DNA from: an uncultured Acidobacteriota bacterium
GTDB taxonomy: Bacteria; Acidobacteriota; Vicinamibacteria; Vicinamibacterales; Fen-181
Length of the DNA stretch: 64,000 bases
Reading direction: 5' to 3'
Assembly (NCBI GenBank): GCA_963701315.1
Contig: OY969603.1
Coordinates: 2,571,537-2,635,536, forward strand
The notes under the pieces: model-generated
The model's database searches: none
What the model saw: the letters and a program-made list of their open reading frames with translations, nothing else
Told to the model about the DNA's origin: nothing
In this document: piece by piece, positions 1-64,000 of the stretch
How the letters are laid out: the number at the start of each line of letters is the position of its first letter
Numbering within the stretch: position 1 is the stretch's first letter
Program-made: the position numbers and the translations under genes

Positions 1-2
1 AG

Positions 3-1607
3 TACTTCACGGATGCGGGCCTGGTCGTGACGACCTTGTCGAGCGAGCCCCTGCCCGCCGGCATCAGCGCCGCGCCGGCGCTCGCCAGCCTGGCTCCCCT
101 CGCGCATGCGGCGTCGTCGCTGCCGCCGATTGTCAACCCGCGGTCGCTCCCGGCCGTACCCGGCGCGAAGCCGACTTCAGCTCCGCTCGTCCTGCAGAAG
201 ACGTTGACGCCTCAGCTCGACATCAAGCTGTTCTTCCGGGCCGGCTCGGCGATCGATCCACCGGGTAAGGAGGGCCTCGCCGCGCTCGCCGCGGCCATGA
301 TCACCGACGCCGGATCGAAGACGCTCACCGTCGACCAGATCAACGCGGTGCTCTACCCCATGGCCGGGTCGTTCGTGAACCAGGTCGACAAGGAGGTGAC
401 GACCTTCACGGGCACCGTCCACCGCGACAACTGGCGCAAGTTCCTGAGCACGGTGCTCCCGCAGCTGCTCGAGCCGGGCCTCCGCGAGGAGGACTTCCAG
501 CGCGTCAAGCAGCGGCAGCTGAATGCACTCGTCGAGGATCTCCGGTCCAGCAACGAAGAGGAGCTGGGCAAGGAGCGGCTCCAGACCAACATCTTCCGGG
601 ATACGCCGTACGGCCACCCGGCCCTCGGCACGGTCGCCGGCCTCACGGCGATCTCGCTCGACGACGTCAGGCAGTTCGTCCAGCGCGCGTACGGCCAGGC
701 GCGCCTGACGCTCGGCGTCAGCGGCAACGTCCCGGATGAGTGCCTCGACCTCCTCAAGCTCCAGCTCGGCCGCCTGCCGGCGGGCACTCCGGAGGAGGCG
801 TCCCGGCCCGCCGCGGTGGGAAGACGCCCGTCCGGGCTCGAAGTGGAGATCGTCGAGAAGGACACGCGCAGCACGGCCATCTCGTTTGGCCTGCCGATCG
901 CGGTCACGCGGGCGCACCCCGATTTCGCGGCATTGTCGGTCGCCCGCGTCTGGCTCGGCGAGCATCGGGCATCGAGCGGCCGCCTCTATCAGCGGATCCG
1001 CGAGGTACGGGGCATGAACTACGGCGACTACGCCTACATCGAGGCGTTTCCGCGTGGCATGTTCCAGTTCTTCCCCGACCCGAACGTCGTGCGCCGCGCG
1101 CAGCTCTTCGAGGTCTGGATCCGGCCGGTGGTCCCCGAGAACGCCCACATGGCGTTGCGCGTGGCCATCCACGAGCTCGACCGCCTGCTGACGCAGGGCC
1201 TCACGGAAAACGACTTCGAACAATCACGCAACTACCTGATGAGGAACGTCTTCCTGATGACGGCGCGGCAGGACGAACAGCTCGGCTACGCGCTCGACTC
1301 CCTCTGGTACCGAACTGGCGAGTTCACCGAGATGATGCGGAAGGCCCTCGCCGCCCTCACGGTCGACCAGGTGAACGCGGCCATCCGCAAGCACTGGTCG
1401 GCCACGGACTTGTCGGTCGTGATCATCACGAAGGACGCCGCCGGCCTCCGTCGGCGACTGCTCTCCGACGCCTTCTCCCCGATCAAGTACGATGGAGAGA
1501 AGCCGGCCTCCCTGCTGGAGGAGGACAAGGTCATCGGGGCGCGCAAGTTGGGCCTGACCGCCGACAAGGTGAAGGTGACACCCGTCGCGGACGTGTTTGC
1601 CAAGTAG
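3..1607 (+). CDS. M16 (insulinase/pitrilysin) family peptidase, non-catalytic-type unit; 5' partial (frame open to the window edge)
   Basis: The frame of ORF 27..1607 stays open back to base 3. The translation shows M16-type domain-pair features (FFRAGSAIDPPGKEGLAALAAAM, LTLGVSGNV) and no HxxEH motif in the visible part. Confidence 0.75.
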   Translation, partial: YFTDAGLVVTTLSSEPLPAGISAAPALASLAPLAHAASSLPPIVNPRSLPAVPGAKPTSAPLVLQKTLTPQLDIKLFFRAGSAIDPPGKEGLAALAAAMITDAGSKTLTVDQINAVLYPMAGSFVNQVDKEVTTFTGTVHRDNWRKFLSTVLPQLLEPGLREEDFQRVKQRQLNALVEDLRSSNEEELGKERLQTNIFRDTPYGHPALGTVAGLTAISLDDVRQFVQRAYGQARLTLGVSGNVPDECLDLLKLQLGRLPAGTPEEASRPAAVGRRPSGLEVEIVEKDTRSTAISFGLPIAVTRAHPDFAALSVARVWLGEHRASSGRLYQRIREVRGMNYGDYAYIEAFPRGMFQFFPDPNVVRRAQLFEVWIRPVVPENAHMALRVAIHELDRLLTQGLTENDFEQSRNYLMRNVFLMTARQDEQLGYALDSLWYRTGEFTEMMRKALAALTVDQVNAAIRKHWSATDLSVVIITKDAAGLRRRLLSDAFSPIKYDGEKPASLLEEDKVIGARKLGLTADKVKVTPVADVFAK

Positions 1608-1617
1608 AGGTGGATGC

Positions 1618-1651
1618 CGGCGGGCCCTCAAGGATTGGCGGGGGCCCGCCG
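1618..1651 (+). terminator. GC-rich hairpin after the M16 gene (possible terminator)
   Basis: A 10-bp inverted repeat CGGCGGGCCC...GGGCCCGCCG starts about 11 nt after the stop codon. There is no clear U-tract. Confidence 0.3.
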
Positions 1652-1749
1652 ATTAATCCAGACGACGGACCCGCCATCGCGGGCGCCGATGCGATTCGGT
1701 CGGGCGGCGTCGGACCGGTGCCGGGTTTCCGTGAAGCCAGTCGAGTCCT

Positions 1750-61500: not shown

Positions 61501-62294
61501 CTTCCCCGCGGTGCTCGAGGACCCGGTGCGGGGGGCTGCTGCCCGAGAGCTGTACGACGACGGCCGCCGACTCCTCGATGAAATCGTCACCGACGGTCTG
61601 CTGGAATCGCGCGCCGTGTACCGGCTTCTGGCCCGCGGCCTCGGAGGACGACAATCTCGTGTTCTTCACCGACGCGTCACGCACCGGCGAGCTGACGCGC
61701 TTCCCGATGCTACGGCAGCAAGAAGCGCAGCCCGACGGCGGACCCAATCGGTGCCTCGCTGATTTTGTCCCGCCGAGGGCGGCCGATGCGGTCCACTACC
61801 TTGGCGCCTTCGCGGTCACCGCGGGGCTGGGACTCGACCCGCTCGTCGCCCGTTATCGCGACCAGCACGACGACTACCGCGCGATCTTGGCCAAGGCGCT
61901 CGCCGACCGGCTGGCCGAGGCCGCGTCCGAATGGCTCCACCGGAGGGCGAGGTGCGACTGGGGGTACGGTGTCGCGGAGAACCTCGCGCCGGACGACCTG
62001 CGCGCGGGGCGCTATCGCGGCATCCGGCCCGCGTTTGGGTACCCGGCGTGCCCGGACCACAGCGAGAAGCGGCGGCTGTTCGAGCTGCTCGACGCGCCCT
62101 CGCTCGGCATCTCGCTCACCGAGACCTGCGCGATGTTCCCGGCGGCCAGCGTGAGCGGACTGTACTTCAGTCATCCCTCGGCCCGGTACTTCGGGGTCGG
62201 GCGCGTGGGCCGCGACCAGCTAGACGCCTACGCCCGGCGCAAGAGGATGGCGCTGGAGGACGTCGAGCGCTGGCTCGGCCCCAACCTGGGCTAG
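58567..62294 (+). CDS. metH: Cobalamin-dependent methionine synthase; reading frame broken twice
   Basis: Three ORFs (58567.., 59702.., 61578..) join into full-length MetH with Hcy-binding, pterin-binding ([11 protein letters not shown]), B12-binding ([10 protein letters not shown]) and AdoMet-activation ([20 protein letters not shown]) regions. The +1 shifts follow GTAC 59415-59418 and GTAC 61618-61621. The length is 3n+2. Confidence 0.9.
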
Positions 62295-62337
62295 TAAGTC
62301 CCGGGGGGGCGTCCTCCCCGACCCCGTGAGCACAGCA

Positions 62338-62982
62338 ATGACCACTCGCAAGCGTTGCCCCTGGCCCGGCTCCGACCCGCTGTACGTGGAGTACCACGAC
62401 CGCGAGTGGGGCGTCCCCTCGCACGACGACCGCCACCTGTTCGAGATGCTCGTGCTGGAGGGGGCCCAGGCGGGGCTCAGCTGGATCACGATCCTGCGCA
62501 AGCGCGATGGCTACCGCCAGGCCTTCGACCTGTTCGACCCGCGACGGGTGGCGCGCTACGGCGACGCCAAGATGGCCTCGCTGCTCGAGGACGCGGGAAT
62601 CGTGCGAAACCGGTTGAAGCTCACCGCGGCGGTCGAGAACGCCCGCGCGTTCCTGGCCGTCCAGAAGGACTACGGCAGCTTCGACGCCTACCTCTGGGCG
62701 TTCGGCGGGGGCGCTCCGCGCGTGAACCGGTGGAACGCGATGACGGAGGTCCCAGCCCGCACGCCGGAATCCGACGCCCTCAGCCACGATCTCCAGGCGC
62801 GCGGCTTCCGGTTCGTGGGGTCGACCATCTGCTACGCCTTCATGCAGGCGGTCGGTTTGGTGAACGACCATCTCACGACGTGCTACCGCCACCGCCAGCT
62901 CGCCCGCGCGTCACGCGCCGAACCGGCACGCCGACCTCCGGCAGCTCATCGTCCCGCCCGGCCACGCCCGGTCGTCAGGTAA
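62338..62982 (+). CDS. tag: DNA-3-methyladenine glycosylase I
   Basis: RCPWPGSDPLYVEYHDREWGVP...FEMLVLEGAQAGLSWITIL...ICYAFMQAVGLVNDH is diagnostic for Tag. There is an Arg/Pro-rich C-terminal tail of about 30 aa. Confidence 0.9.
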   Translation: MTTRKRCPWPGSDPLYVEYHDREWGVPSHDDRHLFEMLVLEGAQAGLSWITILRKRDGYRQAFDLFDPRRVARYGDAKMASLLEDAGIVRNRLKLTAAVENARAFLAVQKDYGSFDAYLWAFGGGAPRVNRWNAMTEVPARTPESDALSHDLQARGFRFVGSTICYAFMQAVGLVNDHLTTCYRHRQLARASRAEPARRPPAAHRPARPRPVVR

Positions 62983-63968
62983 ACGGCGAAACTCCCCAGC
63001 CAGTGGCCGCCCTCGTAGTGCTCGCCGGTCACGGCGCGCAGTCCGGCCTCCCGGTGGCGGGTTGCCGCCAGCCGCAGGGTCGGCACGCGCGGGTCACCCG
63101 GAGGTAAGCCGTCGGCGATCCCCTCGAGCATCCATGCACGGCTAAGGTTGAGTCCGTCCAGGTGGGCCAGCTTCGGGTCGGTCGGGTCCGTGACCACGGC
63201 CGGCTCCAGCCAGGAGGACGAGGGGCTGAGCGGAAGGTCGGGCAAGAAGGTGGTCAGCCAGCGCGCGTAGGCCTCTGGCGGCAGCACGCGACGGACCAGG
63301 TCGGCTTCCGCGAGGCACGGCGAGAGGAAGTCCTGGCCCGACGGCTCCCACGTCAGGGGGCAGCCGCGATCCTGCAGGTAGAAGCTCCGGATGCGCGAGT
63401 CCAGGAGATCTGCCGTCGCACGATCGCCCTTCTGCCGGGCGGCGTCCAGGATCAGCCCGAACGAGAAGGCCGTCTGGTCGTGTTCGCCAATCCGGATGGG
63501 CTTCGGCAGCTTCGGCAACCAGTCGGTGAGCCGAGCGACGGCCGCGTCCTCGAGGGGCTTCAGGGCGGCGGACCAGACCTTGGCCTGCGGGTCGTCCCAC
63601 TCGCGCAGTTCCGCCGCGAGTTGGAGCAGCCAGGCGAGGCCGTACGGTCGCTCGAAGCTCGCGCGGCCCGCACCGGTCAGGTAACGGACCTCGGCGGCGA
63701 TGTGCTCCGGCGTCAGGCTCTCGCCGACCGCGGCGCGCGCCGGGGCAGCGAAAGGCGCCGTCGGGAAGTCCCTGATCAGCCGGACCAGCAGCCAGTGGCC
63801 GTGCACGGCCGAGTGCCAGTCGTAGCACCCGTAGAACGCCGGGGTGAGGTCGTGGGGCGCCTGCACGTCGCCGGGACCGTTGAGGACGTGGGCAATCTTG
63901 TTCGGATACTCCTTGTGCACGCACGCCAAGGCGAGTGCGGCAAACCGCCCGGCCGCCGCCTCGTCCAC
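62946..63968 (-). CDS. DUF2891 domain-containing protein
   Basis: A GTG start precedes FAALALACVHKEYPNKIAHVL...YGCYDWHSAVHGHWLL, which is characteristic of DUF2891. Confidence 0.8.
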   Translation of the reverse strand: MDEAAAGRFAALALACVHKEYPNKIAHVLNGPGDVQAPHDLTPAFYGCYDWHSAVHGHWLLVRLIRDFPTAPFAAPARAAVGESLTPEHIAAEVRYLTGAGRASFERPYGLAWLLQLAAELREWDDPQAKVWSAALKPLEDAAVARLTDWLPKLPKPIRIGEHDQTAFSFGLILDAARQKGDRATADLLDSRIRSFYLQDRGCPLTWEPSGQDFLSPCLAEADLVRRVLPPEAYARWLTTFLPDLPLSPSSSWLEPAVVTDPTDPKLAHLDGLNLSRAWMLEGIADGLPPGDPRVPTLRLAATRHREAGLRAVTGEHYEGGHWLGSFAVYLTTGRGRAGR

Positions 63969-64000
63969 GCGAGGCTGGGCCTCGCCGACACCACTGATGG

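Follow-up and report, generated by a model that had tools for sequence, protein, structure and literature searches.

Motif-linked insertions split conserved genes in an acidobacterial contig: probable consensus errors at putatively modified DNA

A 64-kb stretch of contig OY969603.1 (assembly GCA_963701315.1), which belongs to an uncultured Vicinamibacterales-like acidobacterium and is hereafter called the window, contains 17 frame-breaking events distributed over 14 genes, at a density of one event per 3.8 kb. All of these events are insertions, amounting to 18 extra bases, and each of them is linked to one of two tetranucleotides, GTAC (11 events) or GATC (6 events). Our analysis indicates that the extra bases are, with high probability, systematic long-read consensus errors produced by a mechanism linked to DNA modification. 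A preliminary description of the window had counted about 17 breaks in 14 conserved genes, roughly one per 3-4 kb, a count that was recovered here by a hidden Markov model (HMM) and by homology. It had also attributed them to systematic basecalling or polishing errors of long reads instead of pseudogenes, a view strongly supported by the link to sequencing technology, the recurrence at homologous sites, the insertion-only spectrum and the absence of decay.

Detection and placement of the frame breaks

Frame breaks were located with a seven-state HMM based on codon-position G+C content (GC3) and a stop-codon penalty, which was run blind to the list of the preliminary description. The model reported same-strand frame switches within genes at 2969, 3853, 8138, 9240, 14423, 16186, 25342, 46342, 52907, 59418 and 61626, and lost the frame at 56200. 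Bracketing the breaks between stop codons was rejected, because at 70% GC (69.7% for the 64-kb window) it is too loose and leaves open intervals of 60-1,650 nt; the breaks were therefore placed by homology.

For this purpose, the window was compared with 80 related loci, of which 26 (583 kb) come from Microflora Danica metagenome-assembled genomes (MAGs) named "MFD...bin" and 54 (901 kb) from other sources that were judged, from their contig naming, to be apparently short-read. The Microflora Danica MAGs were built from Nanopore reads only, with Flye assembly and one Medaka 1.8.0 polishing round, without short reads (PMC12313526); they include L006 (MFD01872.bin.1.270) and L007 (MFD02979.bin.3.149). 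The closest protein relatives of the window are Acidobacteriota MAGs, mainly of the Vicinamibacterales, and the top match among GTDB representatives has 75% amino-acid identity. A metagenome contig from the Joint Genome Institute (JGI), Ga0374055_0000451, represented by loci L081 and L084, is nearer, at 79% DNA and 83-85% protein identity.

Placement was made independently of any motif. Alignment with relatives or with a paralog positioned 16 of the 17 events, 13 of them to 1-3 nt, and the event at 9238 was placed from codon bias and internal repeats alone. In the DNA alignment with the JGI contig, clean 1-nt gaps appear at 14425, 16186/7, 25335/6 and 36165. Searches by tblastn with the open reading frames (ORFs) of relatives among the 80 loci yielded high-scoring segment pairs (HSPs) that are contiguous in the query and lie in different frames of the window, leaving exactly one orphan base at 45741, 46376, 52907, 56200, 59419 and 61622.

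Without the 18 extra bases, all 14 genes read through in one frame, with no other switch inside a gene and no remaining stop codon, and neither nonsense codons nor deletions occur among the events. The Pfam domains of the restored genes match the expected labels, in agreement with the gene names first proposed from the sequence. Downstream of the breaks, amino-acid identity to relatives stays at 65-85% and codon bias is kept, with no sign of decay. Base runs at the events are 1-3 bases long, and two sites are compound, one with an insertion plus a substitution (in the PNPOx-like gene) and one with a double insertion (in the dld-like gene).

The double insertion had previously been listed as a single -1 event at 3820-3840. 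The alignment with L081 shows a 2-nt gap at 3831-3834, HSP arithmetic from tblastn gives a net +2 in 66 of 118 homolog comparisons, and the restored RPDLE equals the homologs' RPSLE in length. Since this event proved to be +2, all 17 events are insertions.

Association with GTAC and GATC

An event was assigned to a tetramer when, after removal of the extra base, the tetramer spans or abuts the junction, with positions within a homopolymer run treated as equivalent. The window contains 187 GTAC sites, one per 342 nt, and 422 GATC sites, one per 152 nt. The earlier estimate that such a tetramer occurs once per about 300-350 nt was thus accurate for GTAC, whereas GATC is commoner than assumed. 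Nine of the 17 events match GTAC, compared with 1.4% of window positions (p = 3.7e-13, or about 1e-10 after correction for 256 tetramers). These are the nine breaks already placed beside GTAC at 14426, 16183, 25332, 32890, 45737, 52903, 56197, 59415 and 61618, every one of which was correct. GATC, once the extra base is removed, accounts for 6/17 events against 2.7% of positions (p = 3.8e-6), and for six of the eight events that do not match GTAC (p = 1e-8). Either motif is matched by 15 of the 17 events, compared with 4.1% of positions (p = 1.7e-19), so that the claim of a coincidence beyond chance is upheld. No rival tetramer was found in this ranking, in which the next entries, AGTA, TACG and ATCT, are overlaps of the same sites.

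Of the remaining two events, that of the PNPOx-like gene is a disguised GTAC and that of the thioesterase gene lies 2-3 nt away from GTAC. The PNPOx-like break had been described as lying beside neither motif; it is a garbled GTAC, given that the homologous codon is TAC (Tyr) in four relatives (L084, L085, L006 and L056) and is preceded by a G, forming GTAC, in three of them (L084, L085 and L006). In coding orientation the window reads GACC at this point, and the 1-nt gap in the DNA alignment at 36165 is with L084. As an additional observation, position 36167 carries a base substitution beside the insertion, the Tyr codon being read as GAC+C. The thioesterase break had been tentatively assigned to a GCATC at 53650. 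Nine relatives share the pattern (S/L)(V/L)Q(E/D)(R/I)YAP, and in the window SVQE (frame 2) is continued by RYAPHS (frame 3), which moves the true site to 53633/53634, near GTAC. The rest of the proposed GATC group, namely 2960, 8136, 9238, 26485 and the tentative 46373, was retained. The final tally is therefore the 11 GTAC-linked and six GATC-linked insertions given above.

The inserted base is also regular. At GTAC it is usually a second C directly after the motif, as had been noted, and twice an A, both times in AGTAC[A]GAC (the extra base is bracketed here and below); at the GATC sites, an A, T or C of the motif is doubled. With GTAC sites oriented so that the insertion lies 3' of the motif, the flank 5'-SAG (S, G or C) precedes 8/11 events, compared with 44/376 oriented GTAC sites (p about 4e-6, hand calculation). 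In one of the two orientations, SAGATC is present at all six GATC events, compared with 20% of GATC sites (p about 7e-5, hand calculation). Within the window, the affected share is 8 of 44 for SAGTAC and 4 of 7 for SAGTACGA. This shared SAG flank may reflect either the k-mer context seen by the basecaller or a longer recognition sequence. A single deterministic k-mer was ruled out as the cause, as GTACG is abundant and mostly intact.

Restriction to Nanopore assemblies and recurrence at homologous sites

Frame breaks in the relatives were counted in an all-against-all tblastn comparison of the 80 loci, in which an event required the support of at least three other loci. Of the 26 events that the Nanopore-only Microflora Danica loci contain over 583 kb, 22 are +1; the 901 kb of apparently short-read loci contain two events (binomial p = 4e-9). 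Both short-read events are a net -4 at one shared homologous site (L076 13627-13630; L079 7124) and probably represent a real indel or an alignment effect, not an error.

Two of the sites broken in the window are also broken in other Nanopore MAGs. At the metH GTAC site, L006 reads CAGGTCACGACGAG (about 16746-16749), a +2 change, and at the yciI GTAC site L007 carries the identical extra C, CAGTAC[C]GAG. Short-read relatives are in frame at all homologous sites; short-read data from the same species were not found, the nearest relatives being 79% identical in DNA and 83-89% in protein. Because independent lineages err differently at one site, we interpret these breaks as reading errors and not as inherited changes. 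In addition, the CAGTACGA site of metH has an error in the window and in L006 and is correct in the Nanopore MAGs L007, L008, L014 and L056. The correct reading of the same site in four other Nanopore MAGs favors a modification specific to the organism.

Outside the window, just 2-3 of the 26 events in the other Nanopore MAG loci touch GTAC or GATC. Several of these loci show 3-5 frame-breaking insertions per 22 kb in contexts other than the two motifs, mostly +1 and one +2, such as those at 4174, 4496, 4725, 6067 and 14349 in L054, at 8928, 9157, 15136, 15392 and 22409 in L067, and at 1361, 1704 and 4756 in L080. In L067, all five events lie near CGAT. This distribution suggests that each Nanopore MAG has error motifs of its own.

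A modification-linked origin and its alternatives

In the explanation that we consider very probable, both GTAC and GATC bear a base modification in this genome. In certain flanking contexts, the modified k-mer would shift the pore signal and thereby lead the basecaller or polisher to call a base too many. At GTAC the output would mostly be a second C after the motif, and at GATC a doubled A, T or C, with 5'-SAG as the favored flank. Wherever the majority of reads were wrong, the error would stay in the consensus and split the gene. The window lies on a contig of 7,039,462 bp, a length that points to long reads and resembles the Mb-scale contigs of the Microflora Danica Nanopore MAGs. We infer that the window itself comes from a Nanopore assembly, presumably a Nanopore-only one, and the genome-specific factor would be methylation at both motifs.

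Published work offers a basis for such a mechanism. Modification of native DNA causes strain-specific errors in Oxford Nanopore Technologies (ONT) data that disappear after amplification by the polymerase chain reaction (PMC11610573, Lohde et al. 2024; PMC11649196). At methylated motifs, GATC included, just some occurrences are affected, and a methylation-aware Medaka model lowers the number of errors (PMC12392509). With the CycloneSEQ nanopore platform, insertions are higher and deletions lower in reads of native DNA than in reads of amplified DNA, and R10 error profiles are more variable (bioRxiv 10.64898/2026.01.14.699587).

Several observations weigh against this explanation. Published methylation-linked ONT errors are mostly substitutions, and motif-linked +1 insertions are less well documented in the studies consulted here. 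The affected share amounts to only about 5% of the GTAC sites and 1.4% of the GATC sites in the window and, because so few motif sites are affected, an extra effect of context must be assumed. The tetramer composition of the window gives no hint of a restriction system, since GTAC and GATC are not notably avoided; with observed/expected ratios (Markov) of 0.88 for GTAC and 0.93 for GATC, avoidance was discarded as a hint of restriction-modification. There is a small chance that the factor is an unusual or bulkier modification, different from ordinary N6-methyladenine, 5-methylcytosine or N4-methylcytosine, which acts at SAGTAC/SAGATC-type sites in this lineage and in the relatives L006 and L007, perhaps also L051 and L067. 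Such a modification would account for insertions in place of the substitutions that are usually reported.

It is unlikely that the errors stem from a k-mer bias of one basecaller or polisher version that is independent of modification, so that words such as SAGTACGA and SAGATCT would be miscalled whatever their methylation. The strong effect of flanking context is in line with a bias of this type, the window may stem from another software version, and for some genomes polishing with Medaka can introduce errors (PMC12392509; PMC11649196). However, a universal bias would strike all Nanopore loci, whereas the other loci have so few events at the two motifs, and within the one Microflora Danica pipeline the CAGTACGA site is right in four MAGs and wrong in one.

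Real mutations, whether through pseudogenisation or through error-prone end joining that adds a base at restriction breaks in GTAC or GATC, are a very improbable source. The extra bases are indeed present in the deposited sequence, and bacterial end joining is known to add single bases at repaired blunt ends. On the other hand, all 17 lesions are insertions, identity and codon bias persist downstream, metH is struck twice, and two sites are garbled. At homologous sites, errors recur in other Nanopore MAGs while short-read MAGs have none, and the extra base follows GTAC instead of falling at the blunt cut GT^AC. Recoding at the transcript level or a programmed +1 frameshift, for which the uniform direction and motif might speak, can be practically dismissed, given the lack of a slippery sequence, the in-frame coding of the same proteins in relatives, the one +2 event, and the spread over both strands and unrelated genes.

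Implications for gene content and databases

The frameshifts of the window belong to an already known type of artefact, here in a long-read MAG of low accuracy; they are not a biological feature and carry no biological meaning. They do have practical consequences: a genome of 7 Mb with this density (one event per 3.8 kb) would contain roughly 1,800 false frameshifts, with about a quarter of its genes split. Errors of this kind inflate the counts of pseudogenes and hypothetical proteins, lower completeness estimates and corrupt protein databases. Examples from the window are the in silico fusion of ogt to a permease and the division of metH into three pieces. Because the PNPOx-like site shows that substitution errors occur too, some amino-acid differences near GTAC or GATC may also be false, and further substitutions at these motifs that leave the frame intact may have escaped notice.

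These findings point to re-polishing with a methylation-aware model or with short reads as the remedy. If modification is indeed the cause, the lineage is predicted to modify both GTAC and GATC. It is also conceivable that motif-linked error signatures of Nanopore-only MAGs could serve to infer epigenomes without raw signal.

Evidence at individual sites

The 17 events are listed in Table 1.

Table 1. Frame-breaking insertions in the window, by gene, position and sequence change
Gene	Position	Strand	Change
dld-like FAD/Fe-S oxidase gene (2808-5645)	2960..2965	+	GATC followed by an extra C, run 2963-2965
dld-like gene (2808-5645)	3829..3836	+	GATTCCTC for expected GATCTC; +2 insertion (T and C)
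Secreted protein gene (7429-9788)	8136..8140	+	GATTC for GATC; extra T, or extra C with ATT as the Ile codon
Secreted protein gene (7429-9788)	9238..9242	+	GAATC for GATC; extra A
Aldo/keto reductase gene (about 14215-15002; Pfam Aldo_ket_red)	14425..14429	+	Extra T directly 5' of GTAC
First of two tandem EAL-HDOD genes	16183..16187	+	GTAC plus extra C
2Fe-2S subunit gene, molybdopterin dehydrogenase	25332..25336	-	GTAC plus extra C (+ strand)
PIN-domain VapC gene	26485..26489	+	GAATC for GATC; extra A
Omp85-type/PD40/peptidase-MA fusion gene	32888..32893	-	Extra G 5' of GTAC on + strand; coding CAGTAC[C]CGG
PNPOx-like gene	36164..36168	-	Garbled GTAC; + strand, relative CAGTACTC vs window CAGGTCCTC; extra G plus A>C
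YCII-domain gene (yciI)	45737..45741	+	GTAC plus extra C
ogt, near 3' end	46373..46377	+	GATTC for GATC; extra T
Second M14 peptidase gene (50836-53478)	52903..52907	+	GTAC plus extra A
Thioesterase gene	53633..53639	+	Extra C 53633 or A 53634; 2-3 nt 5' of GTAC 53636-53639
Rubrerythrin/ferritin-like gene	56197..56201	-	GTAC plus extra C (+ strand)
metH (58567-62294)	59415..59419	+	GTAC plus extra C
metH (58567-62294)	61618..61622	+	GTAC plus extra C

GATC-linked sites: At the first site of the dld-like gene, the window reads CAGATC[C]CGACGG where L081-L083 have CAGATCCGCAGC, and the alignment shows one excess base at 2964-2968, placed within about 3 nt. For the first break in the secreted protein, relatives read GAGEI(R/N)HAFRVTV; the window encodes GAGE in frame 1 and EHAFRVTV in frame 2. 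Comparison with eighty JGI contigs places the extra base (8137-8140) at the Ile codon of a conserved G-E-I-x-H-A-F-R motif. The second break lies where homolog cover is absent, as relatives reach 9022 at most. There the HMM switches at 9240/9241, GC3 is high from ATC onward, and the spacing from DGT to SRxT is 11 residues, that of two internal repeats (four repeats compared). In VapC, ten homologs (85-89% identity) share SGIRSHRQ, which the window encodes as SGIR, ending in CGA, an orphan A, and SHRQ, starting with TCT; the homologs thereby pin the break to 26486, between Arg and Ser. In ogt, L006 has GVAGDLFVAPF and L007 has the DNA sequence GGCGATCTCTTC, while the window gives GVAGD, the orphan T at 46376, and LFVAPF. 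Since the ogt stop is lost from the frame, the raw sequence presents an ORF of 650 aa (45803-47755), which is the false ogt-permease fusion; the genuine ogt stop overlaps the permease ATG (ATGA) near 46466-46470.

GTAC-linked sites: In the aldo/keto reductase gene, L081 reads CGTCGTCCAGTC-GTACTCGCC and the window ...CAGTC[T]GTACTCGCC, with one flank mismatch, downstream; the letters of the window here are CAGTC[T]GTACTCG. The first EAL-HDOD gene can be compared with its tandem paralog, which reads DCVVAYERGEWD; the window encodes DCVVAY and then continues in a shifted frame, which confirms the break at 16187, in accordance with the 1-nt gap against L081. For the 2Fe-2S subunit, L084-L086 have GAGTA-CTGCGG where the window has GAGTACCTGCGG, GTAC being kept in the relative, and the gap corresponds to GAGTAC[C]TGCGG in the window compared with GAGTACTGCGG. 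Twelve homologs of the Omp85-type fusion protein share NKV(Q/R/K)(Y/F)-xx-(F/L)-x-(F/Y)-x-(I/V/T)L, a pattern that removal of one C alone restores as NKVQY-RT-FAFEVL, with a resolution of one codon (32888-32890).

In yciI, L056 encodes QYQLLPW, the counterpart of which is divided in the window between frame 3 (QY) and frame 1 (ELLTW). At least five relatives of the second M14 peptidase have HSPs that run to 52906 and resume from 52908 with contiguous query residues, and in all relatives the codons are TAC or TTC followed by GAC. Residues 11-30 of the rubrerythrin-like protein of L056 align to 56260-56201 and residues 31-179 to 56199-55753, on either side of the orphan base 56200. At the first metH site, the window reads CAGTAC[C]GAGGAG compared with CAGTACGACGA in six relatives, two of them short-read. 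At the second, HSPs of six relatives extend to 61621 and continue from 61623 with contiguous residues, the relatives' codons being TAC GGC/GGG TTC TGG.

Genomic setting of the window

The JGI contig is syntenic with most of window positions 1-42,600. Three segments of the window are missing from this otherwise syntenic contig: 7429-9788, which corresponds to the secreted repeat protein (its one Pfam match being a weak DUF5719 hit in the C-terminal repeats); 25613-27409, the VapC (PIN) region; and about 29885-34100, which contains the Omp85-type/PD40/peptidase-MA fusion gene plus a neighbor. These segments are likely to be lineage-specific insertions. Regarding RNA genes, Rfam at gathering thresholds returned no tRNA or other family in the window. 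ARAGORN reported a 91-nt tRNA-Thr at 56731-56821 (-), which lies within the coding region 56455-58006 and is probably a false positive.

Comparison with known systems

Genomes undergoing real decay, for instance through reductive evolution in Mycobacterium leprae, accumulate mixed lesions that include deletions, stop codons and insertion elements, with a deletion bias and divergence after the lesion. The window resembles such pseudogene-rich genomes in that many conserved genes are interrupted, and differs from them in that it has no mixed lesions, deletion bias or post-lesion divergence. Classical Nanopore homopolymer indels share with the events described here the single-base length errors and the frameshifts in long-read-only assemblies. 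Those indels, however, mostly shorten runs of at least about 5 bases, whereas in the window runs of 1-2 bases become 2-3 at two tetramers.

The methylation-induced errors reported for ONT R10.4.1 data (PMC11610573; PMC12392509; PMC11649196) differ from the present case in being mainly purine/purine or pyrimidine/pyrimidine substitutions, whereas the window shows insertions, a contrast to be read with the fact that frameshift detection is blind to substitutions. The window is further distinguished by its main motif, GTAC, by the shared 5'-SAG flank, and by the putative status of its methylation. In other respects the two are alike: the errors are genome-specific, occur at part of the occurrences of short motifs that include GATC, persist after Medaka polishing, are located mainly in coding sequence and disrupt gene calling.

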